A stretch of 64,000 bases of DNA from positions 3,580-67,579 of the forward strand of contig JAJYLD010000004.1 of assembly GCA_021788015.1 (NCBI GenBank), written 5' to 3'. The notes beneath the pieces were generated by a model. That model had not been told where the DNA came from. It did not search any database and saw nothing but the letters and a program-made list of their open reading frames with translations. Positions 5,311-40,697 of the stretch are shown piece by piece. The stretch's first letter is position 1; each line of letters opens with the position of its first letter. The position numbers were made by a program, and so were the translations under genes. Source of the stretch: a bacterium (GTDB taxonomy: Bacteria; Patescibacteriota; Patescibacteriia; Patescibacteriales; JAKAJF01).

Positions 5311-5405
5311 TTGCCAAAGCTACTTCCAGGTGTTAAACTGAAATTGATAAAAATAGGGCTGGATTTTTGATAATCTGGCTTTTTTAAACTAATTGCCCTC
5401 CTTTT

Positions 5406-5467: not shown

Positions 5468-5468
5468 T

Positions 5469-7355: not shown

Positions 7356-7359
7356 TAAT

Positions 7360-7436: not shown

Positions 7437-7445
7437 AAAAATCAT

Positions 7446-7790
7446 ATGCAATTTCAACAAAACGAATTTCCAACACGAGCGATTAAGTTTTCAGTTTCCG
7501 ATGAAAACGGCAAAGAAATAGGCCGAGCCTTTTTGTTTATTTTAAAAAATGATTTGCGCAATCGGGAATACGGTTTTATGGAAGACGTGATGGTCGACGA
7601 AGAATATCGCGGCCAAGGCATCGGCACCCAACTTTTGAACGAACTTATAAAAACGGCAAAAGAAACGAAACTATATAAAATCATCGGCACTTCGCGGCAC
7701 GAGAGAGAAAAAGTGCATGCTTTGTATAGAAAGCTCGGCTTTGAAGATTTTGGAAAAGAATTTAAAATGTATTTGGAAAAAATGGACTAA
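7446..7790 (+). CDS. GNAT family N-acetyltransferase (114 aa)
   Basis: Acetyl-CoA motif A 'RGQGIGTQLLNELIKTAK' and C-terminal 'LYRKLGF'. Confidence 0.8.
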   Translation: MQFQQNEFPTRAIKFSVSDENGKEIGRAFLFILKNDLRNREYGFMEDVMVDEEYRGQGIGTQLLNELIKTAKETKLYKIIGTSRHEREKVHALYRKLGFEDFGKEFKMYLEKMD

Positions 7791-7791
7791 T

Positions 7792-9428: not shown

Positions 9429-9431
9429 TTT

Positions 9432-10073
9432 ATGAAAGTAATTTTCGACTTGGATTACACATTATTGGATACCATAAAACTAAAAAAAGACTTGGCCAAA
9501 GTTCTCGGATTGAGCGCGGAAGAATATAATGAACAATACAAAAAATTTTTTAAAGACAGGGGCATAAATTGGAATTTGGAAAGGCATTTGGAAATTTTGC
9601 GAACGGAAAAAGGAATTTCCAAAGACGAGGAAGAGGCAATCAGACATAATTTTACGGAATTGCTAAAAAAAATGGATGAATATTTATTGCCCGGCGCCGA
9701 AGAAACGTTGCGCAAATACAAGAGAAAGGGCGACGAATTGATTTTGGCCACTTTCGGCGACATAGATTGGCATAAATTAAAAGTTGAAAATTCCAAGGTC
9801 CTGATGCGCAACCTTGATCACATCATCTACGAAGACAAAGATAAAACAAAAAATGCCTACTTGCGTTTTTTAAGAGATAGCGGCGAAAATATTTTAATTG
9901 TTAACGACAATGCCAAAGAAAGTTTCGAGCTTTTAAAGCTTTTGGGCAAAAATAGCGAACTGCGTCTTGTTGACGGTCCTTATGCTCGAAATGTCGAGCA
10001 TAATCATAAAATTGAGAATATAAGTGAATTGCCGGGGAAAAAAATAATTTCGCAAGAACATAAAATCAAATAG
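9432..10073 (+). CDS. HAD-like hydrolase
   Basis: N-terminal 'MKVIFDLDYTLLDT' (DxD motif I) and 'ILIVNDN' motif IV-like. Confidence 0.55.
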   Translation: MKVIFDLDYTLLDTIKLKKDLAKVLGLSAEEYNEQYKKFFKDRGINWNLERHLEILRTEKGISKDEEEAIRHNFTELLKKMDEYLLPGAEETLRKYKRKGDELILATFGDIDWHKLKVENSKVLMRNLDHIIYEDKDKTKNAYLRFLRDSGENILIVNDNAKESFELLKLLGKNSELRLVDGPYARNVEHNHKIENISELPGKKIISQEHKIK

Positions 10074-10074
10074 A

Positions 10075-10806
10075 ATGAAAACGAAAATTGTAATTTTGGC
10101 GGCGGGAAAGGGCACGCGGATGAAAACGAGCGTGCCCAAAGTTTTAATACCGGTAAATGGCGAGTCGATGATAAAACATTTGACCCGGTCCGCTTTGGAA
10201 TCCGAAATTGACGAAAAGCCGATTATTGTCGTTTCTCCGGAAAATGCGGAACCGATAAAGAAAGAATTGGGAGATAATTTTGAATACGCGATTCAAAAAG
10301 AGCAACTTGGCACGGGGCATGCTCTGGCCAGTGCCAAAGAAAATGTCGAGGAAAAAACTGAGCGAATAATTGTCTTAAATGGAGATCATCCGTTTATTAA
10401 GACGGAAACTTTAAAAAAACTGAACGAAACGCTTTTGGAAAATTTAGCCATGCTAACCGTGACTTTAAACGATTTCGACTCCTGGCGTAAAAATTTTTAT
10501 CATTGGGGAAGGATTATCCGCGAAAACGGGAAAATAAAAGCGATCAGAGAATTTAAAGACGCGAGCGAAGGGGAAAAAGAAATTAAGGAAGTGAATCCCG
10601 CCATTTATTCTTTTGATTCCGCCTGGCTTTGGGGAAATTTAAAAAAAATTAAGAAAGAAAACGCGCAAAAAGAATATTATTTAACCGATCTTGTAAGTTT
10701 AGCTTTCGCGCAAAATAAAAAAATAGACTCCTTGCCGATTGACGCGAAAGAAGCGATCGGGATAAACAGTCTGGAAGAATTGGAAACAGCGGAAAAAATA
10801 TATTAA
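10075..10806 (+). CDS. sugar-1-phosphate nucleotidyltransferase (GlmU N-terminal-domain-like, no LbH acetyltransferase domain)
   Basis: 'VILAAGKGTRMKTSVPKVL', 'QLGTGHAL', 'LNGDHP'. At 243 aa it covers only the pyrophosphorylase domain. Confidence 0.75.
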   Translation: MKTKIVILAAGKGTRMKTSVPKVLIPVNGESMIKHLTRSALESEIDEKPIIVVSPENAEPIKKELGDNFEYAIQKEQLGTGHALASAKENVEEKTERIIVLNGDHPFIKTETLKKLNETLLENLAMLTVTLNDFDSWRKNFYHWGRIIRENGKIKAIREFKDASEGEKEIKEVNPAIYSFDSAWLWGNLKKIKKENAQKEYYLTDLVSLAFAQNKKIDSLPIDAKEAIGINSLEELETAEKIY

Positions 10807-10872
10807 AATTGTTAAATGGTTAAATTGATAAATTATTAAAATGACCATTTAGCAATTTGGCAATTTAGTTTT

Positions 10873-12174
10873 ATGCAACAAATTCTCGATTTACATATCC
10901 ATTCCAAATATTCCCGCGCCTGTTCCTCGGCTTTAACTTTGCCGAATATCGAAGCGACATGCAGAATAAAAGGCGTGGACATTGTCGCGACCGGCGATTT
11001 TACTCATCCGGCTTGGTTTGCCAGCATTGAAAATGAGTTGGAAGAAATACCTCACCTCAACCCTCTCCTAAATAAGGAGAGGGAGACAGGATTGTATAAA
11101 TTAAAATCGGCCGAAGATTCAAGAATAAAATTCATTTTATCGACCGAGTTGGCTTTGATTTATAAAGACGGAGAAAAAGTCAGGCGTATTCATTTAATGG
11201 TGCACGCGCCCAGCTTGAAATCCGTGCGCGAGCTTAATCGCGAGCTTGGAAAAAAATACAATATTAAATCGGACGGACGACCAATTCTGGGCATGAAAGC
11301 GCCGGACTTGGTCAAACTTTGTTTAAACATTGATCCGCGTTTTTTAATTTATCCCGCGCATATTTGGACGCCTTGGTTTTCCGTTTTTGGATCGAAATCA
11401 GGGTTTGATTCTATGGAAGAATGTTTTCGCGAGCAAACGGAAAATATTTACGCTTTCGAAACCGGACTCTCGAGCGATCCTGAGATGAATTGGCGATTGT
11501 CGAGTTTGGATAAATTAACATTGCTTTCGAATTCGGACGCGCATTCTTTGCCGAATATCGGCAGAGAGGCAAATGTCTTTGCAATGGAGCGAATTTCCTA
11601 CAATGAAATTTACGACATTATAAAAAATAAAAAAGTTTATCAAAAAAATAAATCGGGTGTAAAATACACGATTGAATTTTATCCCGAAGAAGGCATGTAT
11701 CATTACGACGGGCACCGCAATTGCGGAATCGGGTTGAATCCGGAGGAAACAAAAAAAGAAAAAGGCATTTGCCCCGTTTGCAAAAAACCGTTGGTCATCG
11801 GCGTTTTGAACCGCGTCCAGGAATTGGCGGACCGCCCTTCCGGGTTTAAGCCGGAAGGAGCGCCGGGATTCAAAAAACTCATCGAGCTTGATAAAATTAT
11901 CGCCGAGGCTTTCGATATAAAGAGTCGGCATTCGCAAAAAGTGCAAAAAGAATACGATAGTTTAATTAAAAAGGCGGGAAGCGAACTTTTTATTTTGATT
12001 GACGCGGACTTGGAAACGGTAAAAGCCTATTTTCATCCGGCCGTCGCCGAAGGGATCAAAAGGATGCGCGCAGGCGATCTTTACATAAAACCCGGTTTTG
12101 ACGGCCAGTACGGCGAAATAAAAATTTTTAACGAGAAAGAAAAAGAAAAATACAGGCAACAATCGCTTTTTTAA
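10873..12174 (+). CDS. endonuclease Q (EndoQ)-family PHP-domain protein
   Basis: 'DLHIHSKYSRA', 'GDFTHP', 'LLSNSDAHSLPNIGREANVF', zinc ribbon 'CPVCKKPL', C-terminal 'KPGFDGQYGEIKIF'. All parallel the archaeal EndoQ motifs as I recall them. Confidence 0.75.
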   Translation: MQQILDLHIHSKYSRACSSALTLPNIEATCRIKGVDIVATGDFTHPAWFASIENELEEIPHLNPLLNKERETGLYKLKSAEDSRIKFILSTELALIYKDGEKVRRIHLMVHAPSLKSVRELNRELGKKYNIKSDGRPILGMKAPDLVKLCLNIDPRFLIYPAHIWTPWFSVFGSKSGFDSMEECFREQTENIYAFETGLSSDPEMNWRLSSLDKLTLLSNSDAHSLPNIGREANVFAMERISYNEIYDIIKNKKVYQKNKSGVKYTIEFYPEEGMYHYDGHRNCGIGLNPEETKKEKGICPVCKKPLVIGVLNRVQELADRPSGFKPEGAPGFKKLIELDKIIAEAFDIKSRHSQKVQKEYDSLIKKAGSELFILIDADLETVKAYFHPAVAEGIKRMRAGDLYIKPGFDGQYGEIKIFNEKEKEKYRQQSLF

Positions 12175-12190
12175 ATTTATTCTCAAAAAG

Positions 12191-12220
12191 AAAAACCCCT
12201 TTTAATCCAAAGGGGTTTTT
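12191..12220. terminator. bidirectional rho-independent terminator
   Basis: 'aaaaacccctttt aatcc aaaggggttttt' between the convergent 10873..12174 (+) and 12301..12372 (-). Confidence 0.7.
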
Positions 12221-12300
12221 CTTTTCCTCCCCTCATCAATTATCCAAGCGCTAAATGAATTTAACGCGCAAATAATTGACGAGGGTCAGAAAAAAGAAAT

Positions 12301-12372
12301 TTATTTCTTTTTCTTTTTTGCAGCCTTCTTTTTTTTAGGAGCGGCTTTTTTAGCTTTTTTCTTTGTTGCCAT
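12301..12372 (-). CDS. tiny lysine-rich peptide, 23 aa (MATKKKAKKAAPKKKKAAKKKKK)
   Basis: ATG preceded by a strong SD (rc of 'cacctcctttc' = 'gaaaggaggtg') at ~7 nt. Terminator lies downstream. Below the ORF-track cutoff. Confidence 0.4.
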   Translation of the reverse strand: MATKKKAKKAAPKKKKAAKKKKK

Positions 12373-12727
12373 TTTAATTCACCTCCTTTCAAGGATAAAC
12401 GAAACTCAAAACGCTTTTTACATTTTTTGAGTTTCGAAAAAAATTATTATCTATTTATATTATATAAGAAATTTTTTTAGATAACAATACCCGGGCGTTC
12501 TTTTTTTCGAGAAAATAATTTTATTTTTTAAAAAAATTTTTCTGAAAAAAATATTTTTTTCGCCCGACAATTTTTTCTTAAAAAATTTTTTATAGATCGT
12601 TTTTTAAGAAAAGAAAAGCGCGTTTCTTAAAGAATGATCGAACAAGGCGGGGGGGATGGTTTATTTTTTGCTTAGATTTAAAAAAAGGCTAATTTTAAAT
12701 AAAAATAATAAACAGAATTAAAATATC

Positions 12728-12756
12728 TTGACAATATTTTTCTCCCGTGCTAAGAT
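12728..12756 (+). promoter_or_regulatory. sigma70-like promoter (TTGACA-17-TAAGAT)
   Basis: 'ttgaca' 12728-12733, 17-nt spacer, 'taagat' 12751-12756. Points into the long hairpin at 12782. Confidence 0.4.
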
Positions 12757-12781
12757 AATTTGTTATTTAAAAATACAAAAT

Positions 12782-12911
12782 AAAAAGCCGGTTTAAGCGG
12801 GACAGGCACGACAAGCATGGGGATTTTCTTTGAGGGTATATTTGGTAACTTTTGTTACTAAATTTTTCCTTGTAGAAATTTTCTTGCCTGTCCGCTTAAA
12901 CCGGCTTTTTT
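12782..12911 (+). ncRNA. candidate small RNA / bidirectional terminator: 27-bp perfect stem with ~76-nt loop
   Basis: 'aaaaagccggtttaagcgggacaggca' (12782-12808) pairs perfectly with 'tgcctgtccgcttaaaccggcttttt' (12885-12911). T-runs on both strands and an inner 'gtaac tttt gttac' hairpin. Confidence 0.3.
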
Positions 12912-12969
12912 TATAAAAACAAGAAAGCTGTGGATAACTTAAGGACAAAATTTGAAGATTTTGTTCTTT

Positions 12970-14808
12970 TTAGTTTGAGGTGCTTGTCGCATTTTCGGGC
13001 GTACTGGTCGGGGTCGATAATTGTTTCACGCCCAAAAGACAAACTTTTTGCCACGGCACATAATGGGAATAAAATGTTCTCTTCTTAATATCGCCACCCG
13101 GATAGGCAACCGTATAATTAAAATAAGCGTCGGCGCCGTTATGCGCGAGTTCGGTGCATTTCATTTCCCCGGGAGGGAGATCGAGAGTCTCGGTGATTTT
13201 AGGCGGTTTCGGTTTTACGATATTGTAAATGGTCGGAGCGGTTTCCTCGACCTTGCGTCCGTCTTTTGTGCCCCACATGTCGAAATAAATCTTAGTTCCT
13301 TCTATGCGCGACTGAATCAAAATATAATTTCCGGTATCGTTTATAAAACGCAGATCCGGAGAAGGATCGTATATGGTCGCATCCGTGCCGGCTGGTTCGT
13401 AATAACTGACTCGGTAAGAATGATTTTGTCTTTCCGTAATCGGAAGGCCGGTATTTAAGGCGGCCCGGAACATGGTTGTGGCGATTTGGCACAATCCGCC
13501 GCCGTAATCGGGAACGGTTTTGTTGTCTTTTATGACAAGCTCCGGCAAATAGCCGGTTGCTTTATCGATTTCTCCCAGCGCTTTGACAAGAGAAAATTCT
13601 TCATTCGGTTTTATCAGCATCCCGTCAAGCGTGTTCGCTCCGACATTAATATTATGAATGCGGTTTTTGGGAGAGCCGGAGAAATTCGATTCCCCCGTGC
13701 CGATTATTTCTTTAATGCCCAAGTCGGTCAGTCGGGTGGGTCCGCCTATGCTTTTTGCGGTGTCGACCGCCAATTCAACTTGGTAGTTGCCGTCGAGCAC
13801 GCTTTTGCCGATTTCTTCCGAGCTGGAAGCGACATTCAATTCAAGACCGTCTTTGTTTGATTGGATGGCGATGATTTTTCCGGTCCCGTCAATTTGGAAT
13901 TTTGCGTTAATCGGTTCTTTGTTCAATATGGGCGCGATCGTATTATTAAGATAATCGCTTATGGCGTCCTGGTTTAAAAAAATTTCAACCTTGTTCTGAT
14001 CGTAATTTTTTTCAAGCGCAAGCCAGGAAGCGAGAACTTGTTTTTTTATTTTCCATTCTTGATCGCCGTATTTCAAAACAAGCGGATTTTTTAAAATTTG
14101 TTTGGCCTCTTCGGTCATTCCCCCGCAATCCTTTTCATAAACCCGGGGAGAACTAAGCACGGAATAAAGTTCTATTTCGGAATTGTCGAGATTTTCCAAA
14201 TTCAACTGGAGCGAGTTTATTCCCCGGGCGTAATCAATCACTTTGCCGGACTCTTCTCCTTGAATGGAAAATTTATCGGTTTCATGGTTATAAACCAATG
14301 AAGCGTCCTTAGCCGGTATTTCGTAATGGGAATATTCTTCGGCCAAATAAGTCCTCACCGCTTCAGTATCGATTTTTGTGAACATGGGGACGTTATGCCC
14401 GAAAATTAACGCGGTTAAAATGTCTTTAAGGTCGATAAATTCGTTTCCCTCCCTGCCGTAACCCAAAGCTTTTTTTATGGATTCGTCGGGATCGAAAGTG
14501 ATAATTTCGTAAGCCGAATCGTTTTTCGAGATTATGGGATAAACGGCGATTTGATCGCCGGCATAACTGAAGGGCACGCCGTCATTGTTTATGACTTTTA
14601 TTTTTTGGTTTAGGATATTCCAGGCGTCTCCGTAAGTTTTTCCCCCGAGATCGAATTCGGCCGCGTACACGCCGGGATAAATTCTGTCTCTGTAATAATA
14701 TTTAAAAAAGGAATAGACGCCTATCAAAAGAAAGAGATTGATAAAAAAAATGATTGCAAACTTAGGCAACCATCCGGAGAGCGTGTCTTTCTTTTTTTCT
14801 AAAAACAT
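12970..14808 (-). CDS. VanW family protein (N-terminal TM anchor)
   Basis: VanW core 'GGGLCQIATTMFRAALNTGLPITERQNHSYRVSYY' and N-terminal hydrophobic segment 'FAIIFFINLFLLIGVYSFF'. Confidence 0.85.
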   Translation of the reverse strand: MFLEKKKDTLSGWLPKFAIIFFINLFLLIGVYSFFKYYYRDRIYPGVYAAEFDLGGKTYGDAWNILNQKIKVINNDGVPFSYAGDQIAVYPIISKNDSAYEIITFDPDESIKKALGYGREGNEFIDLKDILTALIFGHNVPMFTKIDTEAVRTYLAEEYSHYEIPAKDASLVYNHETDKFSIQGEESGKVIDYARGINSLQLNLENLDNSEIELYSVLSSPRVYEKDCGGMTEEAKQILKNPLVLKYGDQEWKIKKQVLASWLALEKNYDQNKVEIFLNQDAISDYLNNTIAPILNKEPINAKFQIDGTGKIIAIQSNKDGLELNVASSSEEIGKSVLDGNYQVELAVDTAKSIGGPTRLTDLGIKEIIGTGESNFSGSPKNRIHNINVGANTLDGMLIKPNEEFSLVKALGEIDKATGYLPELVIKDNKTVPDYGGGLCQIATTMFRAALNTGLPITERQNHSYRVSYYEPAGTDATIYDPSPDLRFINDTGNYILIQSRIEGTKIYFDMWGTKDGRKVEETAPTIYNIVKPKPPKITETLDLPPGEMKCTELAHNGADAYFNYTVAYPGGDIKKRTFYSHYVPWQKVCLLGVKQLSTPTSTPENATSTSN

Positions 14809-14810
14809 AT

Positions 14811-15026
14811 TTAATCTTTCGGATTTAAAATTTCATTTAGAATTTTTTTCGCTTTTTCTTTTTCTTCTCGTTCGTATTCGTCCGAGTTTTTAATATCGAA
14901 GATCAAAACCGCCCCCTCCTTAACTTCGGGCAAATTGTTTTTCGGCCATTCGACGCTTTCCCCTTTTTCGGTTTTTAAAACGGCCGTTTTTCCTTCAAAG
15001 CGATCGATTGTCATTTTTATAACCAT
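14811..15026 (-). CDS. DUF3006-like small protein
   Basis: 'IDRFEGKTAVLKTEKGESVEWPKNNLPEVKEGAVLIFD' matches the DUF3006 pattern. The start could instead be the internal ATG at 15014. Confidence 0.6.
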   Translation of the reverse strand: MVIKMTIDRFEGKTAVLKTEKGESVEWPKNNLPEVKEGAVLIFDIKNSDEYEREEKEKAKKILNEILNPKD

Positions 15027-15036
15027 AGAAACGCAT

Positions 15037-15489
15037 TTATATTTCTTTGACTTTTATTGCCACTTGCTTCGGTTTCGCTTTCGGCAAGATTACGGTCAAA
15101 ACGCCGTTTTCCAAATAAGCGTCGACTTTTTTTTCCGCGCTGATTTCAATCGGTAAGATTATAGAACGGGAAAACGACCCCCAATAACATTCGCGGGCGA
15201 AATAATTGTCATCGGAAATTTCTTCTTCCATTTTTCGTTTTCCTTTTATGGTAAGCATGTCGTTGTGCAGAGAAATGTTTAAGTCTTCGGGCTTGACTCC
15301 GGCAATCGTGGATTTGACGATCAGTTTATCCTTCGTTTGAAAAACATCAACCGAAAGTTGCCCTTCTTCATAATCGTCTTCAAGCCAGTCATCGTCAAAA
15401 GACGAATCATTGCCGTAATATTCCTCCGATTTCACTTCGGGAATAATTTTTGTTTTTGTTTTGAATGGAATTAAATTTTTTAGCTCCAT
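15037..15489 (-). CDS. Hsp20/alpha-crystallin family small heat-shock protein
   Basis: 'LSVDVFQTKDKLIVKSTIAGVKPEDLNISLHNDMLTIKG...GSFSRSIILP...ENGVLTVILPK'. Start trimmed to 'MELKN' (cat at 15487-15489). Confidence 0.85.
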   Translation of the reverse strand: MELKNLIPFKTKTKIIPEVKSEEYYGNDSSFDDDWLEDDYEEGQLSVDVFQTKDKLIVKSTIAGVKPEDLNISLHNDMLTIKGKRKMEEEISDDNYFARECYWGSFSRSIILPIEISAEKKVDAYLENGVLTVILPKAKPKQVAIKVKEI

Positions 15490-33177: not shown

Positions 33178-34797
33178 TTAATGGTTTTTTTGGGCCCTTA
33201 GCTCATTTGGTAGAGTACCTGCTTTGCACGCAGGGGGTGAGGAGTTCGAGCCTCCTAGGGTCCACCATAAGATACTTTCAGAATTTTTTGAGCCAGACGG
33301 AAGGATTGCCTCGCGGCTTCGCCGCTCGGCTAAGCCGCTTTGCGCAAGGCGCAAAGCGGCAAAATCCCACGGCTCGCCAAACAAAACGGAAACGGATTTG
33401 TCCAAAAGCAAGGGGTTCGTTCCAATCTTTTGGACAAATGCCTTAATTTCTCCGAAACTCTCGCTCTGCGAGAGTTTTTCGGCTTTATTCGCGTCTAAAA
33501 TCCACGCCCGCAAGGGTTGGAGCCAATTCTTTCCCGTTCGTCCAAAATCCTCCAAATCGTTCGCAAGAGAAACTTTTTGCTTCAAAAGTTCCTCCTTTTT
33601 CGCCAAATAGTTTTCTTTGGGAATATCGCCGTCAATGTAGGCGGAAACTAACTTGTCCAGTTTCTCTTGCGTATCCGCTAATTTGGATTTCAGATTTTGG
33701 ACGAACGATTGCGATGAGCGGACATTTTCTTTTTGCCATTCATCTACTTGCCTCAACATTTTTCCTGTCCACTCATCGCAAATGGCAACGCTTTTGAGCC
33801 GTGCCTTAAGTTGCGCGACAAGATTGCTTTCTTGCACATACTTTTGCGAACATACACCTTTCTTTTTGGTGCAACGATAGTAGCGATATATGCCGCCGCA
33901 CTTGCCGCGCGAAAATTGCGCCGTGATCGCCGAGCCGCACTCTCCGCAAGAAAGTAATCCGGTAAATGGGAAGTCATGGCGTTGCTTGCTCTTGCGGGGT
34001 TTGGCACGGCGCAATAAGACATTCTGCACGGCTTCAAAAAGCGTTGCGGAAAGAATTGGCTCAAAGCGTCCTTCGTGATACTCGCCCTTGTGCTTCACCA
34101 AACCTAGATATGCTTGGTTGGTGAGCATTCGCGATATGGACGCTTTGGCAAGTGGCGTTCGGTGCCGCGTTTCCAAACCAAGTTCAGCCAAAAACTCCGC
34201 CATAGTTTCCAGCGTATGCGTCCCTTTGGCGTATTCCTCAAACGCGCGGACGATAACTTTGGATAATGTCGGGTGCGGCTCAATCGTACGCGTTTTCGGA
34301 TTATTCACATAGCCAAAGGGCGCTTTGGTCAGCCACTCTCCGCGGCGGAGTTTTTGGCGGATACCGCGATTGATATTTTCAACGAGGTTATCGCTGTAAT
34401 ACTTGGATTGACCGAACGCCACTTGCAACATAAACAACCCTTGCGGCGTGGGCTCAAACCAAAATGTCGGAAAGCGCAAAGAAACGATTTTTTGCGTGTC
34501 CACGAGATAAATGACTTTGCCGCCGTCCACCGAATTACGCGCCAACCTGTCGGGGTGCCACGCGAGTATGCCCACACCGTCCATTTTCTCAATTTCGTTC
34601 ATCATAGCGGCAAACATTTCTCGTCCGGGTTTCTTTGCGCTTTTCGCCTCTTGAAATTCTTGGATAATTTCAAGATTTTCTCTACGCGCATATTCGCGCA
34701 ATTCAAAGAGTTGAGCTTCAATACTCATAATTTGGTGGTCGTCATCTTCCGTTGATTTGCGAGCGTAGAGAAAATATTTTGGTTTGAGCATATTCAT
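33178..34797 (-). CDS. large serine recombinase (resolvase domain, recombinase domain, zinc ribbon)
   Basis: 'YARKSTEDDD' catalytic Ser, 'AWHPDRLARN', zinc ribbon 'CGECGSAITAQ...YYRCTKKKGVC', coiled-coil tail. The last ~70 codons run through IR-A and antisense tRNA-Ala, so the true C-terminus is uncertain. Confidence 0.85.
   Translation of the reverse strand: MNMLKPKYFLYARKSTEDDDHQIMSIEAQLFELREYARRENLEIIQEFQEAKSAKKPGREMFAAMMNEIEKMDGVGILAWHPDRLARNSVDGGKVIYLVDTQKIVSLRFPTFWFEPTPQGLFMLQVAFGQSKYYSDNLVENINRGIRQKLRRGEWLTKAPFGYVNNPKTRTIEPHPTLSKVIVRAFEEYAKGTHTLETMAEFLAELGLETRHRTPLAKASISRMLTNQAYLGLVKHKGEYHEGRFEPILSATLFEAVQNVLLRRAKPRKSKQRHDFPFTGLLSCGECGSAITAQFSRGKCGGIYRYYRCTKKKGVCSQKYVQESNLVAQLKARLKSVAICDEWTGKMLRQVDEWQKENVRSSQSFVQNLKSKLADTQEKLDKLVSAYIDGDIPKENYLAKKEELLKQKVSLANDLEDFGRTGKNWLQPLRAWILDANKAEKLSQSESFGEIKAFVQKIGTNPLLLDKSVSVLFGEPWDFAALRLAQSGLAERRSREAILPSGSKNSESILWWTLGGSNSSPPACKAGTLPNELRAQKNH
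33192..33267 (+). tRNA. tRNA-Ala (anticodon UGC), CCA encoded
   Basis: GGGCCCT TA GCTC ATTTGGTA GAGT A CCTGC TTTGCAC GCAGG GGGTG AGGAG TTCGAGC CTCCT AGGGTCC A CCA. G3-U70 alanine identity pair present. Confidence 0.9.
33262..33393 (+). repeat. IR-A, left copy (132 bp)
   Basis: Reverse complement of 34820-34951 with no mismatch seen by eye. Also visible as identical peptide 'IRYFQNFLSQTEGLPRGFAARLSRFAQGAKRQNPTARQTKRK' in ORFs 33207..33446 (+) and 34794..35183 (-). Confidence 0.9.
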
Positions 34798-34819
34798 ATT
34801 ATTTTAGACGCGAATAAAG

Positions 34820-34951
34820 GTTTCCGTTTTGTTTGGCGAGCCGTGGGATTTTGCCGCTTTGCGCCTTGCGCAAAGCGGCTTAGCCGAGCGGCGAAGCCGC
34901 GAGGCAATCCTTCCGTCTGGCTCAAAAAATTCTGAAAGTATCTTATGGTGG
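34820..34951 (-). repeat. IR-A, right (inverted) copy
   Basis: Reverse complement of 33262-33393. Lies immediately upstream of the recombinase start codon. Confidence 0.9.
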
Positions 34952-35104
34952 GATATTCTAAACTTTGCGCGAAACTATTTTGAGGGAAACTGACCCGCCT
35001 CCGCTTCGCTCCGGCGGAACGCTCGGGCGCGGCGGAATTCCCCCCACACCCCCCTTCCGCCGCGCCCTCGCTTCTGGCATTTCGGCGAAAAAATCCGGCG
35101 GCTA
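34947..35104 (+). repeat. IR-B, left copy (158 bp)
   Basis: Reverse complement of 36695-36852. Shares the 'ggtgg' core with IR-A. Mirrored ORF peptides 'MRETILRETDPPPLRSGGTLGRGGIPPTPPFRRALASGISAKKSGGY' appear in 34965..35162 (+) and 36538..36834 (-). Confidence 0.9.
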
Positions 35105-35211
35105 CAAAATCAGAAACCACACATTGAAAAAATCTACGATTTTTGCTATGATTGTTTTGTGAGCAAAGAAAGTAATGGCTCATATTTCTATACTATCAAA
35201 AGTAGCATACT

Positions 35212-35409
35212 ATGGCAACTATATCACAGAACATAAAACGAGTGCGAACAAAACAGGGTTTGACGCAGGACGACTTGGCGAAGAAAGCCAATATTAAATA
35301 CTCTACTCTTACGAAAATTGAGGGCGGTGTCGTTACCAAACCGAGCGTTCAAACAATTCAAAAAATCGCCAAGTCGTTAGGCGTTCCGATTGAGGAATTA
35401 TTAAAATAA
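35212..35409 (+). CDS. XRE-family helix-turn-helix transcriptional regulator (65 aa)
   Basis: 'IKRVRTKQGLTQDDLAKKANIKYSTLTKIEGG...PSVQTIQKIAKSLGVPIEELL'. Confidence 0.85.
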   Translation: MATISQNIKRVRTKQGLTQDDLAKKANIKYSTLTKIEGGVVTKPSVQTIQKIAKSLGVPIEELLK

Positions 35410-35419
35410 CTTTCAAAAT

Positions 35420-36259
35420 ATGGAAATAATCATCTTTATTGTAATAGTGGTTCTCGCGGGTCTTATTTTCCGTGGTCTTTTTGATAGAAGCTGGCGAGCA
35501 AAAGCACAAGATAATATTGACGCTATTAGAAATTCAAAGAATTTTTGGTATTTGATGAGCCAAAAAATTAACGCGGAAAAAGTATTTTCTGCTTATTTAA
35601 GAACAAGAAATCAAAAAGACTATATTAGAGTTGGTGATTGTGTTATGGATATATACTCCAACAAAGAAGAAATCAATAAAAATGATTTTGATATCAAGAC
35701 TATTACAAAGGGAGATAGTATCAAAATCGTCAATTCTGTTTTGAATCCAAAAATACAAGAAAAAGAAAAAACAATAAGCGATATTCTATCAGAAAACAAA
35801 ATCAGTTTTACTGAAGATGAAATCCGTAAAGGTTTCAAAGAATATTTTGATGAACATTTTTGGAATATCGACGAGGTGCAAAAACACTACAATCGGTTTA
35901 TGACTGCTCATCTTGATTCCTTAGTGAAAAGCAATAAAACCGGAGCGGATATATGGAAAGTGCTTAAGGATTTTGCAGATAAGGACCATGAATTTGAATT
36001 CGATCGCTCCGGTGAAAAGCATGTGGAATTTTTGGAATCGCTTAAACTACTACAAAACGATGTTAAAAACTTCGTGATAGATTTGCTTTGCGGAAAAATC
36101 GACAATAAAGAAAAATCGCAAAAACTAAAAAAGGCATTTACAGAGTGGCAACAGCTTCATATGTTGCGGTGGTGTGTTGTCGATTTTAGTGTTTGGGAAA
36201 TTGGCAAGAACAAAATACAAACAGGTTTGTGGCGCATGGCTACAGCGATTTTTCTTTAG
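35420..36259 (+). CDS. hypothetical protein, N-terminal TM anchor (279 aa)
   Basis: 'MEIIIFIVIVVLAGLIF' anchor followed by a K/E/D-rich soluble region. No motif recognised. Confidence 0.6.
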   Translation: MEIIIFIVIVVLAGLIFRGLFDRSWRAKAQDNIDAIRNSKNFWYLMSQKINAEKVFSAYLRTRNQKDYIRVGDCVMDIYSNKEEINKNDFDIKTITKGDSIKIVNSVLNPKIQEKEKTISDILSENKISFTEDEIRKGFKEYFDEHFWNIDEVQKHYNRFMTAHLDSLVKSNKTGADIWKVLKDFADKDHEFEFDRSGEKHVEFLESLKLLQNDVKNFVIDLLCGKIDNKEKSQKLKKAFTEWQQLHMLRWCVVDFSVWEIGKNKIQTGLWRMATAIFL

Positions 36260-36262
36260 CAA

Positions 36263-36697
36263 ATGACCGACCCAATCCAAACAATTTTATCTGCTCTAAC
36301 ACTTCTTGGCTTGGGTGGAATACTCGGCGGATATGTGAGTTATCTTTTGGACAAGAAAAAGGAACGAGAGTTCAAGGTGTTAGAGCAGAAAGAAAAAAGG
36401 TACAAATCCTGCCTATTGTACATGGACGCATATTTTGAACCGAAAAATATAAAGTATCTTTCGAGCCGTCAACCCGATATTGATAATGCGCAAGATGTAA
36501 TTGAGTATCTGAAAATGGAGTTTTACGAGATGATGCTTTACGCCTCGAAAGATGTTATTCTTTCGGTGAAATCGTTTATCGAAAATCCTGTGCGTGAGAA
36601 TTTTCTCAAAACGATTTTGTCCATGAGGCAGGATTTGTCCAATAAAAATGATTTGGATTTGGGCAATATGATTTTAGAGGTCAAATCCAAATCATAG
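36263..36697 (+). CDS. hypothetical protein, N-terminal TM anchor (144 aa)
   Basis: 'ILSALTLLGLGGILGGYVSYLL' anchor followed by a helical region. The stop codon is the first triplet of IR-B right. Confidence 0.6.
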   Translation: MTDPIQTILSALTLLGLGGILGGYVSYLLDKKKEREFKVLEQKEKRYKSCLLYMDAYFEPKNIKYLSSRQPDIDNAQDVIEYLKMEFYEMMLYASKDVILSVKSFIENPVRENFLKTILSMRQDLSNKNDLDLGNMILEVKSKS

Positions 36698-36852
36698 CCG
36701 CCGGATTTTTTCGCCGAAATGCCAGAAGCGAGGGCGCGGCGGAAGGGGGGTGTGGGGGGAATTCCGCCGCGCCCGAGCGTTCCGCCGGAGCGAAGCGGAG
36801 GCGGGTCAGTTTCCCTCAAAATAGTTTCGCGCAAAGTTTAGAATATCCCACC
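36695..36852 (-). repeat. IR-B, right (inverted) copy, ending in core 'cccacc'
   Basis: Reverse complement of 34947-35104. Confidence 0.9.
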
Positions 36853-36886
36853 AAACAAAAAATTCGATTCATTCGGATTTTTTTGT

Positions 36887-36944: not shown

Positions 36945-39900
36945 ATGGGATTTTTGTTCCCAAAATCATCAGTAAGATTTTTGACCACTATGTCAATAGC
37001 GCTTTTCATTGCGGGCGTTTTTTTGATTTTAAATATTCCAAAAGCGGAGGCGGCGACGATTTACGCCAATTCTGCAACCGGCAACGATGCCAATGCTTGC
37101 ACTTCAAACGCACCGTGTCAAACTTTTACTCGAGCTTATGCCGTCGCATCTAGCGGCGACACTATTGATTTGACCGGAACATTTGACTGGACCAATGGAA
37201 GCGGCGGCGCATCTGAAACAACTTCGGCGACAACCGGTTTTACTATTGCCAAAAATTTGACAATTCAGGGTCAGGGATCCGACCAAACTTTCATCCAGGC
37301 GGCGTCATCCGCGGGCGTGGCCGGCAGAAGAATATTTACTATCAGTTCGTCATATACCGTGACTTTTAAAAATCTCGATTTGCGTTACGGGAATGTCAGT
37401 AATTCCAATAATGGCGGCGGAGCCGTCTATGTCGGTTCTTTGGCCACCTCGGCCAATGTTACATTTGACAGTTGTATCCTGGAAAACAACACTGTCTCTT
37501 CCTCAAGTTATAACTACTGGTTCGGCGGCGGAGCTATTTATTATATGAATAACGGCAGTAACACGTCCGGTCAAGTTATAATTGAAAACAGTATTATAAG
37601 GAATAATTCGGTATCCAACGGCTGGGGCGGGGCAATCTGGCATTATAACGGAGGGTCCAATAGCAGCATAGTCGTCATTAACAATAGCACAATAAACAAC
37701 AATTCCGCCACTTACTTCGGAATGGCGCTAGCGGCGTATTATGGCTCGTTCAACATCAGCAATTCCACCATTACCGGAAACACCGGCGGTACGACGATCG
37801 AAATGGGAAATTGGGGTTACGGAGTACTATATCTTACCAATGTAACATTGGCGTACAATTCCATAGGCAACAGTTCGTCTTATTACGGCCTTGATTTGGA
37901 TCAAGTCGGAAATGTTTACGTAAAAAATACGATCATCGCCCAAAATAAAACGACCAGCGGCGTTCAGCAAGATTATAATGAGTCAAACAGCGCTTTGCAC
38001 AACAACGGACATAACATAGTTGAAACCCAAAGCGGTTCTGATTTCATAAATGGCGTCAACGGGTGCATCGTGGGCGTGCAGGCTGGCTTGAATTTAAGCA
38101 ACGCTCTGGCTTCAAACAATTCATTAAATATTACACAAACCTTGGCCTTGAGTTCCGGAAGTGTTGCCATTAACGCCGGAAGCACGGGAACCAATGGAAC
38201 GGTAAGCGTTCCCTTGACAGATCAGCGCGGTTTGAGTAGAGACGCCAATCCGGACATAGGCGCTTATGAATACGGGGGCAGCGTACCCGCTACGGCTCCT
38301 ACCACCCAAGCGACCAACGTCAGTTTCTCATCCGTCGGCGCAACTTCGACTACTATTTCCTGGACCAACGGCAACGGCGCGGACAGAGTAGTTTTTATCG
38401 CGCAGGCAAACTCCGGCACAACGACTCCTATCGATCATACAACTTACACGGCCAGCACGACATTTGGTTCCGGGACTTCGCTGGGAAGCTCGCCAACATG
38501 GTACGCCGTGTACAACGGTACGGGGAACAGCGTTTCTGTCGCCGGATTGGCAACCAACACAGCCTACATTGTCCAGGTTTTTGAGTACAATGGATCCGCG
38601 GGCGGAGAAGTTTACAATACGGCCTCAACAACCGACAATCCTAAAACCCAAACAACCCTGCAGACCCACACGTTAAACTACGCGGCCGGATCGCATGGAT
38701 CCATTTCCGGCGCAGATCCTCAAACTGTTGCATCCGGCTCTGACGGCTCGGCTGTTACAGCCGTGCCAGACACGGGCTATCATTTTGTTCAGTGGTCGGA
38801 CGGATCAATCGACAATCCAAGAACCGACACTAATGTGACGGCGGATGTTTCTGTAACGGCAAATTTTGCTTTAACAGACGTCACTCCACCCACTTTTTCT
38901 TCGATTTCTTCTTCCTCGACTTCAACCGGCGCCACCATAACATGGGCGACAGATGAAGACAGTTCCACGCAAGTTAACTACGGTCTCACTTCTTCTTACG
39001 GATCGTCAACAACAGAAACGGATATATCTCCGCGTACCACCAGCCACTCGGCAACAATTACGGGACTGTTGTCTTGTACTCGGTATTATTATCAGGTAGA
39101 AGGAGCTGATGCGTCCGCCAACACGGGCACAAGTACCGATGAAATATTTACGACCGCGGGTTGTGTCGGGGACGCCTCAATATCCGCCACAGGCCAGGCA
39201 AGCGTTACGGCAGCGTCGGGAGGAAGCTGGGTCCAGGGCGATTTGGCTTTGACAGTTCCGGCCTCTTTTACGTCCGACGCTTCATCGGCGGTCTTCCAAG
39301 CGAATCAACTGGATGATACGGCCTTTTCCGCGACAGCCGGCGCGCCTTCGAGCTATACGCAAGTCGGCACAGACGTTTATAACCTGAAATCTTTGTCAGG
39401 ACCAGCAACAGCCATTTCAATTTTCAATCATCCGATAACGATAAAGATGACTTACTCTTCCGGCGACATAGGAGTATTAGACGAATCAACGTTTTGGATT
39501 TATCGTTATGACAGTCCTACGTGGGCGCCGTTGGATGATTGCGTTGTTGATACATCGGCCAAAACAGTTACCTGCACCACTAAAAATTTTTCTAATTTTG
39601 CTATTTTTGGTCAAGAAGGAAGTTGTCCAACGGTTGAACATGCCGCGACCTACAATTCTTATCCGACCTGCGGTCCGGCAACCTGCGATTCTGGTTATAC
39701 ATTATTAAACGGTTCTTGTGTAGCCGCAGGCGGCGGTTTATTGCCCGGCATGTATCGCGCGCCCGTTGCGCCGGCAGGCGGTTTTAGCGTAATTGTCGAT
39801 AACGGATCGGCTACGACGACAAACAGAATCGTAACTTTGAATTTTAATGCCGGCTCCGATGTTAAAAAAATGGCAATTTCTTTGACAAGCGATTTTAGCG

Positions 39901-40697
39901 ATGCAAGCCAAGAAAACTATTCCGCGAGCGAGCAATTTGATCTCTGTTCAAAATTGGGAGGATTGATAAAGAGTACGACTTGTCCCGACGGGCAATATAC
40001 GGTCTACGTAAAATTTTATACGCAATACGGCAAAGCGTCCGATGCGGTTTCCACAAAAATCAATTTGGCAAGCGCCTCGCAATTTTCTAATCATACTTTG
40101 ATAACCACTCCGCAATTTTCCAACCCCGCCGCAAATTTTACAAAAAATTTATACCTCGGCTCAAAAGATAACCAGGTCAAAGCGCTGCAGCAGTTCTTAA
40201 ATCAAAACGGATACAAACTGGCTGATACTGGTTGGGGTTCTCTCGGAAGCGAGACCGATTATTTCGGCGTCCTGACCTCAAGCGCTCTTGCGAAATTTCA
40301 AGAAGCAAACAGAAACAAAGCCTCCGGAATGATAAATGAAAAGGGATATTTGGGACCGATAACTCGCCAATTCATCAATTCATCGACGAGCGCGACAGTT
40401 TCAAAACCGTTACACCCGCAAATCCAAAATTCAACTCCCGCAATTTTTACGGCCTCCCTTTATGAGGGGTTACAATCCGAAGATGTCCGCAGATTGCAAA
40501 CACTGCTTGCGACAAGACCCAAAATTTACCCCGATGGGTTGATAACCGGATATTTCGGACCGCTCACGGAAAAAGCCGTTCAAACTTTTCAATTGAGTTA
40601 CGGCGTTGTTGCTTCAAGTTTTGATCCGGGCTTTGGTTATGTCGGGCCAAAGACAAGAGCAAAACTGGAAGAGATATTTGGCAAAAGGGAAAGATAA
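36945..40697 (+). CDS. large secreted/cell-surface protein: parallel beta-helix repeats, Fn3-like, InlB-B-repeat-like, two C-terminal peptidoglycan-binding domains
   Basis: N-terminal anchor 'MSIALFIAGVFLILNIPKAEA'. Repeated 'GGGAIY..NNS..' beta-helix turns. 'GYHFVQWSDGS' B-repeat. 'ITWATDEDSSTQVNYG' Fn3-like. Two 'VKALQQFLN...GYFGPLT..AV..FQ' PG_binding_1-like units. Confidence 0.8.
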   Translation: MGFLFPKSSVRFLTTMSIALFIAGVFLILNIPKAEAATIYANSATGNDANACTSNAPCQTFTRAYAVASSGDTIDLTGTFDWTNGSGGASETTSATTGFTIAKNLTIQGQGSDQTFIQAASSAGVAGRRIFTISSSYTVTFKNLDLRYGNVSNSNNGGGAVYVGSLATSANVTFDSCILENNTVSSSSYNYWFGGGAIYYMNNGSNTSGQVIIENSIIRNNSVSNGWGGAIWHYNGGSNSSIVVINNSTINNNSATYFGMALAAYYGSFNISNSTITGNTGGTTIEMGNWGYGVLYLTNVTLAYNSIGNSSSYYGLDLDQVGNVYVKNTIIAQNKTTSGVQQDYNESNSALHNNGHNIVETQSGSDFINGVNGCIVGVQAGLNLSNALASNNSLNITQTLALSSGSVAINAGSTGTNGTVSVPLTDQRGLSRDANPDIGAYEYGGSVPATAPTTQATNVSFSSVGATSTTISWTNGNGADRVVFIAQANSGTTTPIDHTTYTASTTFGSGTSLGSSPTWYAVYNGTGNSVSVAGLATNTAYIVQVFEYNGSAGGEVYNTASTTDNPKTQTTLQTHTLNYAAGSHGSISGADPQTVASGSDGSAVTAVPDTGYHFVQWSDGSIDNPRTDTNVTADVSVTANFALTDVTPPTFSSISSSSTSTGATITWATDEDSSTQVNYGLTSSYGSSTTETDISPRTTSHSATITGLLSCTRYYYQVEGADASANTGTSTDEIFTTAGCVGDASISATGQASVTAASGGSWVQGDLALTVPASFTSDASSAVFQANQLDDTAFSATAGAPSSYTQVGTDVYNLKSLSGPATAISIFNHPITIKMTYSSGDIGVLDESTFWIYRYDSPTWAPLDDCVVDTSAKTVTCTTKNFSNFAIFGQEGSCPTVEHAATYNSYPTCGPATCDSGYTLLNGSCVAAGGGLLPGMYRAPVAPAGGFSVIVDNGSATTTNRIVTLNFNAGSDVKKMAISLTSDFSDASQENYSASEQFDLCSKLGGLIKSTTCPDGQYTVYVKFYTQYGKASDAVSTKINLASASQFSNHTLITTPQFSNPAANFTKNLYLGSKDNQVKALQQFLNQNGYKLADTGWGSLGSETDYFGVLTSSALAKFQEANRNKASGMINEKGYLGPITRQFINSSTSATVSKPLHPQIQNSTPAIFTASLYEGLQSEDVRRLQTLLATRPKIYPDGLITGYFGPLTEKAVQTFQLSYGVVASSFDPGFGYVGPKTRAKLEEIFGKRER

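Follow-up and report, generated by a model that had tools for sequence, protein, structure and literature searches.

An integrase gene and its cargo between inverted repeats at a tRNA-Ala gene

The window analysed here is a stretch of 64,000 nucleotides of contig JAJYLD010000004.1, from a member of the Patescibacteria (Candidate Phyla Radiation, CPR). This work concerns a compact element at 33262-36853 of the window, which adjoins a tRNA-Ala(TGC) gene and carries int, the gene of a large serine recombinase (LSR). The int gene faces the tRNA gene, and behind it lies a divergently oriented cargo arc with the gene of an XRE/Cro-type regulator and two further open reading frames (ORFs). Each arc is enclosed by its own pair of inverted repeats (IRs), the int arc by two copies of an arm A and the cargo arc by two copies of an arm B (Table 1).

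A repeat search and direct string comparison defined the two pairs as I2 (33262-33393 / 34820-34951, 132 nt) and I1 (34946-35104 / 36695-36853, 159 nt), both of them 100% complementary, and perfect repeats of these lengths exclude chance as their origin. The two pairs share the hexanucleotide TGGTGG at 34946-34951 and thereby merge into a single internal copy of 285 nt (34820-35104), which is the exact reverse complement of arm B (36695-36847), CCACCA and arm A (33268-33393) joined in this order. Since the tRNA-Ala gene ends at 33267 according to both ARAGORN and Rfam, the first CCACCA (33262-33267) is the tRNA's 3' terminus. The left junction, between tRNA and arm A (tRNA/A), reads TAGGGTCCACCATAAGATAC; the internal junction B/A, taken from the reverse complement of the internal copy, reads GAATATCCCACCATAAGATAC; and the right junction between arm B and the chromosome reads GAATATCCCACCAAACAAAA. 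The CCACCA core is the sole sequence common to all three. Counting one core, the element is 3,586 bp long.

An earlier interpretation made from the DNA letters alone (the sequence-only reading) had proposed a mini integrative element with a large serine recombinase at tRNA-Ala, which our analysis supports. Its three junction strings proved correct on string comparison, the intact copy that it placed at 34820-35104 is confirmed by the overlap of I1 and I2, and the homology of the IR copies, which it had put forward for checking, is complete in both pairs. Its right boundary at 36852 has to be shifted to 36853, the third core occupying 36848-36853. It had also taken the high GC content of the repeats as a sign of foreign origin. 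The GC content is indeed 58% in the repeats and 41% in the moderately AT-rich window, but it stems from conserved hairpins in the arms, and the cargo arc, at 35%, is more AT-rich than its surroundings.

Table 1. Positions of the element's features and of its tRNA target in the window.
Feature	Position	Strand	Remarks	Evidence
Large serine recombinase Int	33178..34797	-	539 aa as integrated	Pfam Resolvase, Recombinase, Zn_ribbon_recom; PHROG 95 integrase
tRNA-Ala(TGC)	33192..33267	+	Integration target; T-arm and acceptor end as putative B-type left half-site of attB/attL	ARAGORN; Rfam tRNA, 59 bits
Core copy 1, CCACCA, in attL	33262..33267	+	Last two acceptor-stem bases, discriminator A and CCA	
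Arm A, terminal copy (attL side)	33268..33393	+	Minus strand encodes the disordered C-terminal tail of Int	IR I2
Arm A hairpin	33334-33360		GCCGCTTTGCGC-AAG-GCGCAAAGCGGC; compensatory stem variants in relatives	
Int codons ILDANK	33483..33501		Reverse complement recurs just upstream of the int start codon (34801-34819)	IR I7
Second segment of the internal inverted copy	34801..34819		4-22 nt upstream of the int ATG	IR I7
Internal attP-like site, intact	34820..35104	-	B-core-A on the minus strand; between the divergent int and XRE genes	
Parts of the internal site	34820-34945; 34946-34951; 34952-35104		A'; core'; B'	
Promoter-like site for XRE and cargo	35124..35152	+	TTGAAA-17-TATGAT with TG; just outside B'	Consensus scan, 10/12 matches
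XRE/Cro-type helix-turn-helix (HTH) regulator	35212..35409	+	65 aa; first gene of the cargo arc, divergent from int	Pfam HTH_3, 3.6e-17; PADLOC HTH_VI / Control_protein
Cargo ORF	35420..36259	+	279 aa; N-terminal hydrophobic helix	
Cargo ORF	36263..36697	+	144 aa; N-terminal hydrophobic helix; stop codon overlaps the first bases of arm B	
Arm B, terminal copy (attR side)	36695..36847	+	G-rich hairpin GGGCGCGGCGGAA...TTCCGCCGCGCCC	IR I1
tRNA T-arm mimic in arm B	36819-36836		AAATAGTTTCGCGCAAAG	
Core copy 3, CCACCA, in attR	36848..36853	+	Original tRNA 3' flank follows	

The same layout in a large family of Patescibacteria loci

Relatives were sampled as 80 loci from species-representative genomes and 80 from metagenomes, and 14 loci were added by exact protein look-up. 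About 170 related Patescibacteria loci from genomes and metagenomes share the plan of the window element, with int between inverted A arms and cargo between inverted B arms. Self-comparison of the 80 genome and 80 metagenome loci revealed an inverted repeat pair of 115-150 nt flanking int in almost all of them. The upstream A arm ends 0-60 nt before the int ATG and overlaps it in some loci (L023, L065, L078), and the downstream arm (A' when the locus is read along int) begins at about residue 468 of Int. Where the upstream sequence suffices, a second pair of 150-460 nt encloses a directly adjoining cargo arc of 1.2-7 kb. Immediately past the A' arm, a tRNA gene on the opposite strand is found in about 115 loci and belongs to one of 12 amino-acid types (Ala 28, Ser 26, Glu 24, Arg 17, Pro 5, Leu 4, Lys 3, Val 3, Gly 2, and Tyr, Met and Ile 1 each). 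The three junctions, which behave as attL, an intact inverted attP and attR in line with the sequence-only reading, recur as the same triplet in every relative with enough flank: all three junctions and both IR pairs are complete in 26 loci, and about 115 show the tRNA junction.

The tRNA counts may be too low. In 33 loci (e.g. L008, L032, L051, L052, L062, L073), ARAGORN calls no tRNA past A', yet the flank holds a T-arm-like GGTTCGA(A/T)TCC. These flanks may be unusual or intron-containing CPR tRNA genes, or fragments of such genes; in that case, the number of tRNA targets is underestimated.

Several loci show how the layout persists or varies. It occurs twice in the chromosome CP060229.1, which is a single contig (L020, L076). 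In L001, an LSR 43% identical to the main recombinase lies beside it in the same layout: this second LSR, at 4402-6126 of L001 (JAKAHD010000005.1), has its own 122-nt inverted arms (4402-4523 / 5923-6044) and lies at tRNA-Ser(tga), with about 50 nt between it and the far end of the main element, which occupies the adjacent tRNA-Ala, so that two members of the family occupy neighbouring tRNA genes. Exact look-up of the 539-aa Int ORF returned no record, and that of a 537-aa form led to L081 (ENA ERZ27233565 k141_21474), which is identical to the window across int, begins 21 nt inside B and continues as B-core-A-int-A'-tRNA. L081 and L082 both carry the window-type B-core-A upstream of int. L082 (ENA ERZ27283008 k141_18175) is chimeric, with a tRNA-side A arm of the L001 type (CCACCAACAGGAATTTTGC...) and an internal B/A of the window type (CCACCATAAGATAC...), the two arms being 84% identical. 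The upstream A copy of L019 (412-536) and L040 (5143-5269) stands 2.1-2.9 kb from int, the int arc of this subgroup holding one or more extra genes. In L063, int is flanked by 190-nt direct repeats (91% identical, 7341-7525 / 10700-10887) beside tRNA-Glu, not by inverted arms, and this locus may be a relative of different arrangement or a rearranged one.

Could such a layout be produced by the assembly itself, as a fold-back chimera formed during amplification or as a mis-join of an integrated form with a circle? Perfect repeats beyond typical k-mer lengths do invite mis-joins, and the window is derived from a metagenome. An artefact is nevertheless effectively refuted as the origin of the layout, which is the same in about 170 loci from many studies, assemblers and habitats and is present twice in the one-contig chromosome. 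Very many contigs of the family stop 50-450 nt upstream of int, just where a true repeat exceeding the assembler's k is expected to break the assembly. The k=141 contig of L081 spans the 132-nt A repeat on both sides, the orientation of the arcs is non-random, and a mixture of integrated and circular forms would yield a direct junction, not an inverted one.

Attachment sites that copy the end of the target tRNA

In the 26 complete loci, the tRNA/A, B/A and B/chromosome junctions share only a core of 4-7 nt, which is the hybrid arrangement of attL and attR found with LSRs. The core sequences of the relatives (CCACCA, CCAC, TCAC, CCGC, GCAC, GGAC, CGAC) follow the target tRNA, from which they take the two final acceptor-stem bases, the discriminator and the base after it. 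It is within this core that the crossover must lie, and the symmetry of the half-sites suggests its first two bases as the crossover dinucleotide. Models based on a palindromic mini-circle or a target-site duplication were rejected, since the middle core reads as the reverse complement of both outer cores and CCACCA has no dinucleotide in common with TGGTGG.

Across 94 unique internal sites, the consensus is TCaAAAtAgGTTCGcGCAAAG../core/AAaa.GaaACTTc, or in a fuller form TCaAAAtAgGTTCGcGCAAAGgttAg.Atttcac/CACAAaa.GaaACTTc. Arm B carries GTTCG, a copy of the universal tRNA T-loop, at 23-24 nt from the repeat boundary as against 18 nt for the T-loop motif GTTCRA in the tRNA itself, and this offset of 5-6 nt is observed in 60 of 65 related loci. 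In the window, the T-arm mimic occurs only at 34963-34980 and 36819-36836. For canonical LSRs, Rutherford et al. described a zinc-ribbon-domain motif that is shifted by 5 bp towards the centre in attB relative to attP (PMC3783163). Read together with this shift, the GTTCG offset makes B/A resemble an attP and the tRNA end an attB half-site, as far as motif positions can tell.

The arm B of the window element, at tRNA-Ala, and that of L118, at tRNA-Pro, are about 95% identical except for a few bases next to the core (GAATATC/CCAC vs GAATCGT/CGAC; window 36819-36853), and switching the tRNA target seems to need very few changes in attP.

With somewhat better than even confidence, we interpret 33262-36853 as one integrated member of a very large family of Patescibacteria mini mobile elements, apparently undescribed so far, that uses a twin-attP mechanism. 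Its free form would be a circle of 3.59 kb with two identical attP copies in inverted orientation.

An integrase whose reading frame crosses its own crossover site

The protein encoded by int has the hallmark parts of an LSR, namely the resolvase catalytic, recombinase and zinc-ribbon domains and a coiled-coil. The three Pfam domains PF00239, PF07508 and PF13408 all score above cut-off, the match to the PHROG 95 integrase reaches 2.8e-78, and the AlphaFold2 model displays long helices at residues 341-421, after the Zn ribbon. Among 8,000 candidates scored, 6,232 homologues were retained at E<=1e-20. None of the phage or plasmid integrases in annotated collections is more than 28% identical to it, and the nearest solved structures of the clade are those of SPbeta SprA and the A118 integrase, its relatives in the PDB being distant.

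The body of Int is conserved over residues 1-468 (33394-34797), and the remaining tail is read from arm A, the core and the antisense strand of the tRNA gene. In the window, the int ORF runs through arm A and the core and stops within the tRNA antisense strand, a point absent from the sequence-only reading. The int frame is open through the whole A' arm up to or across the core in 104 of 104 unique loci, compared with 70 and 53 for the other two frames; integration must therefore always rewrite the C-terminus of Int. Two types of tail are found among the homologues, one read from the tRNA antisense strand (...WW/T.GESNP...) and the other from B' (...WW/DILNFARNYFEGN); the native-type tail of the window Int is ...WWDILNFARNYFEGN. 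The B'-read tail, expected in the circle form, stops 13-18 codons past the core in 59 of 66 reconstructions and carries a conserved ILxFARTxFE, corresponding to the conserved B block in reverse complement. In P0028 (3,840-bp contig), the Int tail consists of tRNA-antisense codons followed by a B'-like peptide, SILKIVRTNF, which suggests either the B arm of another element beyond the tRNA or a tRNA fragment within an array.

Only the tail beyond residue 512 is exchanged on integration, and this region is disordered, with pLDDT values below 50 for residues 459-476 and 478-539. Differences in the tail fall on codon positions 1, 2 and 3 in proportions of 31/28/41%, as against 24/16/60% in the int body, so that constraint and codon bias are weak. 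On account of this weak bias and the disordered model, we rejected the idea that A' is maintained as a conserved protein tail.

A further inverted repeat, likewise absent from the sequence-only reading, I7 (33483-33501 / 34801-34819, 19 nt, 100%), abuts the internal copy and brings the reverse complement of Int codons next to the int ATG. This bipartite ILDxxK repeat occurs family-wide, in most relatives, and matches exactly over at least 12 nt in 56 of 107 loci, at 80-105 nt from the arm. Its co-variation is modest (13.6 vs 12.0 matches of 21), for which reason it was rejected as proof of pairing. We read the segment at 34801-34819 as what remains of a single inverted duplication of the int 3' end in an ancestor, with a stretch inside it deleted that amounts to 89 nt in the window.

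Near-identity of the arms within each element

The two A arms of one element agree at 99.2% of positions in the median; 43 of 106 elements have fully matching arms, and 75 of 106 reach 97% or more. From one element to another, the arms change faster than int, for example with 58-72% identity where int shows 80-85% nucleotide identity, and the hairpin of arm A varies as whole compensatory stem 'alleles'. Scored on the sense strand, 53 of the arm mismatches are G:U-compatible, 72 are of the A:C type and 82 are others. Because there is no bias toward G:U, the homogenisation acts on DNA and not on RNA.

This result bears directly on a role of the repeat in the int mRNA, where the 5' leader (A) would pair with the 3' end of the ORF (A') and limit translation until ribosomes reading A' reopen the structure, the duplication of B being incidental. 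The geometry is suitable for such a panhandle: the upstream arm ends close to the ATG or overlaps it, the second repeat segment abuts the ATG, and the frame covers the whole of A' in every unique locus in spite of a disordered, weakly constrained tail. The sense strand, however, lacks the G:U excess that pairing in RNA would leave, promoter evidence upstream of A is weak, and the equally conserved B/B' pair is left unaccounted for, the XRE promoter lying outside B'. We consider regulation by an RNA panhandle to be quite unlikely.

The near-identity could also serve a single-stranded form of the element. If such a strand arose, for example after natural transformation, the internal A'-core'-B' could pair with both ends at once; the resulting dumbbell would align the ends for flap trimming and ligation, circularise the strand in the absence of recombinase or directionality factor and, after second-strand synthesis, give an integration-competent circle. 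The copy is inverted and complete and spans the joint exactly, as intramolecular pairing requires, and its arms of 115-460 nt far exceed the length of a serine-integrase site. Identity within elements is under strong pressure despite the fast divergence between them, with a signal at the DNA and not the RNA level, and the 3.6-kb element has neither a directionality factor nor a transfer gene. The hosts, CPR bacteria, are a group reported to rely on DNA uptake. This splint is nevertheless entirely inferential, single-stranded or dumbbell molecules not having been observed, and we know of no precedent for the mechanism. It explains neither the fixed position of the copy between int and XRE nor the need for the int ORF to cross the core, and gene conversion alone can account for the identity. 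We regard it as improbable. If it were true, the element would excise and circularise without recombinase and Int would insert it into a tRNA gene of the new host, which would make it a mobile element built for transfer by transformation and would explain why the layout is so common in CPR bacteria.

A third possibility is that the internal site does nothing, being the relic of an inverted duplication of the int 3' end or of a fusion of two elements that persists through linkage and gene conversion. The upstream copy does hold an int coding fragment (ILDxxK) with a deletion of 80-105 nt, the footprint expected of a single ancestral duplication, and no function of the site has been demonstrated. 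Yet the copy is found whole, with about 99% identity to the ends, in over 100 elements, whose Int proteins are 43-100% identical and which target 12 tRNA types; useless repeats of 285-400 bp that could turn the recombinase gene around would be expected to decay or be lost when the genome has only about 1 Mb. A functionless by-product thus also appears improbable, and under the twin-attP interpretation the internal copy would be a working part of the element.

Orientation of the arcs and exchange at the core

If both copies are active sites, inversion of the arcs is possible. In the standard arrangement, found in about 115 loci, int faces the tRNA gene. Three loci (L075, L087, L165) have a flipped int arc, tRNA(+)/A-int-A'/B', and in the two with a measurable arm the arms are diverged (92% identity in L075 and 81% in L087), which fits dead ends that have been severed from the int upstream region. 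The orientation of the cargo is nearly constant and is flipped in one lineage (L085, L091). Both int orientations are therefore seen across different loci, never for the same element in one sample. The sequence-only reading had suggested that the element integrates through either copy and flips its arcs. This is weakly supported: flipped arcs do exist, but they are rare, and the cargo otherwise keeps its orientation.

These orientations also bear on whether the element is primarily an invertible switch, with an int arc, and possibly a cargo arc, that is phase-variable like the H segment of Hin, and with integration as a secondary activity. Int would flip its arc between a state facing the tRNA and a state behind the tRNA promoter, and so toggle the Int level, the Int C-terminus or the expression of the cargo. 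The recombinase gene does lie inside its own inverted sites, both orientations of the int arc and a flipped cargo arc are found in nature, and inversion would exchange the tRNA-antisense tail of Int for the one with the conserved ILxFARTxFE, or the reverse. The isomers, however, stand at about 115:3 and are not mixed, no sample holds both states of one element, two of the three flipped loci have diverged arms, and the cargo hardly varies in orientation. That the enzyme is a large serine integrase, and that its junctions are tRNA-specific in 12 tRNA types, also points to integration as the main activity. We think a switch of this kind unlikely as the primary role.

Several loci carry a further cargo module behind int. 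Evidence that the sites are used comes from the arrays L090, L085, L173 and L157, whose hybrid junctions pass from one partner to another exactly at the core; in L090 and L173, this switch in the sequence indicates site-specific exchange between different elements. In L090 (JGI Ga0438287_001263, 1846-15211), at least five modules, alternately cargo and int, form a chain with a B-like remnant at 1846-1934. Its cargo arms are 100% identical and both of its int arm pairs 89.5%; the mismatch is confined to the hairpin 'allele' in the intB module and lies mainly at the inner end of the arm in the intA module. Modules also reassort between elements. The B arm of the window recurs at 92-97% identity with other integrases and targets, as in L118 (int 69% identical, tRNA-Pro, core CGAC), and the window XRE gene with its promoter region has counterparts of 88-93% nucleotide identity in L030 and L035, two elements at tRNA-Ser in which int is 65% identical. 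The hybrid junctions of the arrays imply exchanges of attP with attL or attR, and depart from the strict pairing of one attP with attB.

Direct repeats of tRNA-like pieces are found upstream of the flipped element of L087 (JGI Ga0209542_10017363), at 9275-9847 (9275-9349/9491-9562, 9388-9430/9540-9582 and 9686-9717/9778-9809), together with an ARAGORN call of 'tRNA-Stop(tta)'. They may be scars of earlier integrations.

Among possible circles, the best candidate is the relative L084, a contig of 3,923 bp in which int lies between the two copies of a perfect 399-nt IR. Terminal overlap as a sign of circularity was absent from L082, L084, L098, L128, L131, L155, L157, L164, L170, L171 and L173, and a 3,619-bp contig with P0122 was rejected as a circle because it represents a normal tRNA-Ala locus. 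When 32 chromosomal flanks were compared by BLAST with all fetched loci, no unoccupied orthologous site emerged that would represent an empty attB.

A proposed twin-attP mechanism and the points that weigh against it

Taken together, the anatomy of the window element and its relatives can be accommodated in the following scheme. The free element would be a circle with two identical, inverted attP sites (B-core-A), one overlapping the 3' end of int and the other located in the divergent intergenic region between int and XRE. Int would recombine the attP at its own 3' end with a tRNA gene, recognising the T-arm and acceptor end as a B-type half-site; arm B would be the P-type mimic of this tRNA end, with GTTCG placed 5-6 bp farther out. 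The crossover would fall within the core, probably at the last two acceptor-stem bases, and arm A would restore the end of the tRNA. The attP used would thus be split into attL and attR, with the last 13-18 codons of Int swapped for tRNA-antisense codons, while the second copy would stay intact inside the integrated element.

Because neighbouring sites are always inverted, an exchange between them could flip an arc but never delete int or cargo alone. Excision between two direct sites would remove exactly one int arc and one cargo arc, and the excised circle would keep a ready-made attP. New circles may be added beside a resident element and give rise to alternating int/cargo arrays, from which new combinations of int and cargo could leave. 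With moderate confidence, we infer that the internal copy is kept as the int leader or control region, acting as an operator for Int and/or XRE, and as a spare attP. With the same moderate confidence, we attribute the identity of the two copies to gene conversion at the DNA level.

Several observations weigh against this scheme. Neither an empty attB nor a proven circle was found for the window element or its relatives, and its mobility is read from comparative anatomy. Under the canonical rules for LSRs, exchange of attP with attL or attR and excision without a recombination directionality factor (RDF) should not occur (PMC3783163), so the arrays need non-canonical events or an additional, unknown factor. 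Equivalent attP copies would give both isomers equally, and the ratio of about 115:3 consequently calls for a preference between the copies or for selection against the other isomer. Homogenisation is not universal, the int arms of the P0006/P0137 lineage staying at 89% identity in several samples. As regards the putative role of the internal copy as leader or operator, a promoter stands out in few sites in terms of recognisable motifs: a sigma-70-like -35/-10 pair that lies in arm B and would fire across the core was recognised in 25 of 94 sites, an enrichment over the 4.7 in shuffles, and that of the window matches at 8 of 12 positions and was not called. Finally, an operator of 50 bp would not need 285-400 bp of identity, and the additional length is explained only by hitch-hiking with gene conversion.

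Cargo genes

The XRE protein of the window is a candidate controller, similar to the C proteins of restriction-modification (RM) systems, or a candidate directionality factor. Besides XRE, the Pfam, PADLOC and PHROG scans gave no candidate directionality factor in the 3.6-kb element, nor any transfer gene. The two other cargo ORFs, of 279 and 144 aa, have no Pfam or PADLOC match, no significant PHROG match and no homologue in the other 173 loci. In the family, 21 of 30 arcs have an XRE-like ORF of 65-89 aa that is divergent from int and adjoins the int-proximal B arm. The cargo consists mainly of defence genes, namely Type II, IIG and III RM systems, with a caspase-domain protein and an ART-PolyVal protein in addition; other cargo genes encode a symporter, a lyase, a GTP cyclohydrolase-methyltransferase and a beta-helix surface protein. 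In L020 (4925-7303), the element carries a 792-aa beta-helix/PKD/PG_binding_1 protein. The gene directly past attR of the window (36945-40697) encodes a 1,250-aa surface protein with InlB-type repeats and PG_binding_1, and cell-surface proteins may travel with these elements or adjoin them. The Rfam scan of the window returned no RNA family other than tRNA. A weak match to PhrS at 35401-35548 (19 bits against a gathering score of 37, E=0.09), at the start of the 279-aa ORF, is almost certainly due to chance.

Comparison with known recombination systems

In its domains, Int resembles the LSRs of phiC31, Bxb1, A118/LI and SPbeta SprA, which share the Resolvase, Recombinase and Zn-ribbon domains and the long coiled-coil. 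The short crossover core, the hybrid attL/attR bounds and the motif shift of about 5 bp are likewise those of phiC31-type elements (PMC3783163). Unlike these, the window element has a second, intact attP in inverted orientation, an int ORF that runs across the crossover and no recognisable directionality factor, its arms of the 115-460-bp class are kept identical, and the tRNA targets of its clade are of 12 amino-acid types.

Tn4451/Tn4453 and Tn5397, with the recombinases TnpX and TndX, are likewise small elements with a large serine recombinase, a circular form and no separate directionality factor. The joint of the Tn4451 circle creates a promoter for tnpX, as cited from Lyras and Rood 2000 in PMC13023037. 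Judged from this citing account, the joint promoter is conceptually close to the joint-like sequence upstream of the window int, which is there permanently, although its promoter evidence is weak. Tn4451-type elements have one joint, no internal inverted copy and no tRNA targeting, whereas the window family has a second, inverted copy of the joint and inserts at tRNA 3' ends.

The circle implied by the junctions would have a structural parallel in the yeast 2-micron plasmid, in which two arcs are separated by identical inverted repeats (599 bp) holding a recombination site, with the recombinase gene in one arc. The sequence-only reading had extended this parallel to function, and Int might, like FLP at FRT, raise the copy number by inversion during replication of the circle, which would have two inverted repeats separating two arcs. 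However, FLP is a tyrosine recombinase and Int belongs to the serine family; the 2-micron plasmid is an autonomous replicon with its own origin and partition genes, whereas no replication initiator, origin-like feature or other replicon gene is present in the 3.6 kb; and its isomers are equimolar, in contrast to the single dominant isomer of elements found integrated at tRNA genes. The functional analogy is not supported, and amplification of this kind is very improbable.

Hin, Gin and Cin resemble the window element in that a serine recombinase gene is linked to a segment with inverted sites, and in the case of Hin lies inside it. They are small invertases of about 190 aa with a C-terminal HTH, an enhancer with Fis and sites of 26-34 bp, and they do not integrate, in contrast to the 525-540-aa integrases of the window family (539 aa in the window) with their integrase domains and tRNA-linked sites. 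An att site within the integrase frame, such that integration alters the gene, has its nearest precedent in the SSV-type 'suicidal' integrases of archaea, described as exclusive to archaea (PMC8371274), and is shared by the window family. SSV-type integrases are tyrosine recombinases whose gene is split in two and inactivated by integration, whereas the window Int is a bacterial serine integrase in which only the last 13-18 codons give way to tRNA-antisense codons.

Arrays in which modules meet at recombination sites and cargo reassorts between recombinase lineages have parallels in SCCmec composites, in the accretion of integrative and conjugative elements (ICEs) and cis-mobilizable elements (CIMEs), and in integron cassette arrays. 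The arrays described here differ in their alternating site orientation, their alternating int and cargo modules, their perfect cargo inverted arms and the lack of a fixed platform integrase outside the array. With RM cargo often accompanied by a C-protein-like XRE, the family also resembles the compact mobile RM units of Furuta, Abe and Kobayashi 2010 (PMC2853133). In the parts of that paper that bear on this, inverted repeats and tRNA integration appear as separate cases, a tRNA-integrated case (Figure 3c) has a tyrosine-type integrase, and no layout of twin inverted att sites is described.

In the full-text literature searched, we found no description of this layout or of the integrase clade, nor any published description of an element with this organisation, in agreement with the sequence-only reading, which knew of none. 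The element is thus a serine-integrase integrative element, which is a known kind, with a conserved twin-attP architecture that is, as far as we found, apparently undescribed.

Implications

The family defines a very abundant and uncharacterised LSR clade, with thousands of homologues and at most 28% identity to annotated phage and plasmid integrases. Its architecture breaks three textbook expectations, namely that an element has one attP, that the att site lies outside the int ORF, and that attL and attR are inert. The reading of int across its own crossover offers a testable model for directionality control without an RDF, and the strictly alternating orientation of the sites one for cassette shuffling. 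Mimicry of the T-arm and a core that follows the target tRNA suggest a naturally retargetable platform of integrase and att sites, of interest for genome engineering, nearly the same B arm serving elements at tRNA-Ala and tRNA-Pro. For the CPR/Patescibacteria, with their tiny genomes and few known mobile elements, the family appears to be a main vehicle for RM systems and other accessory genes.

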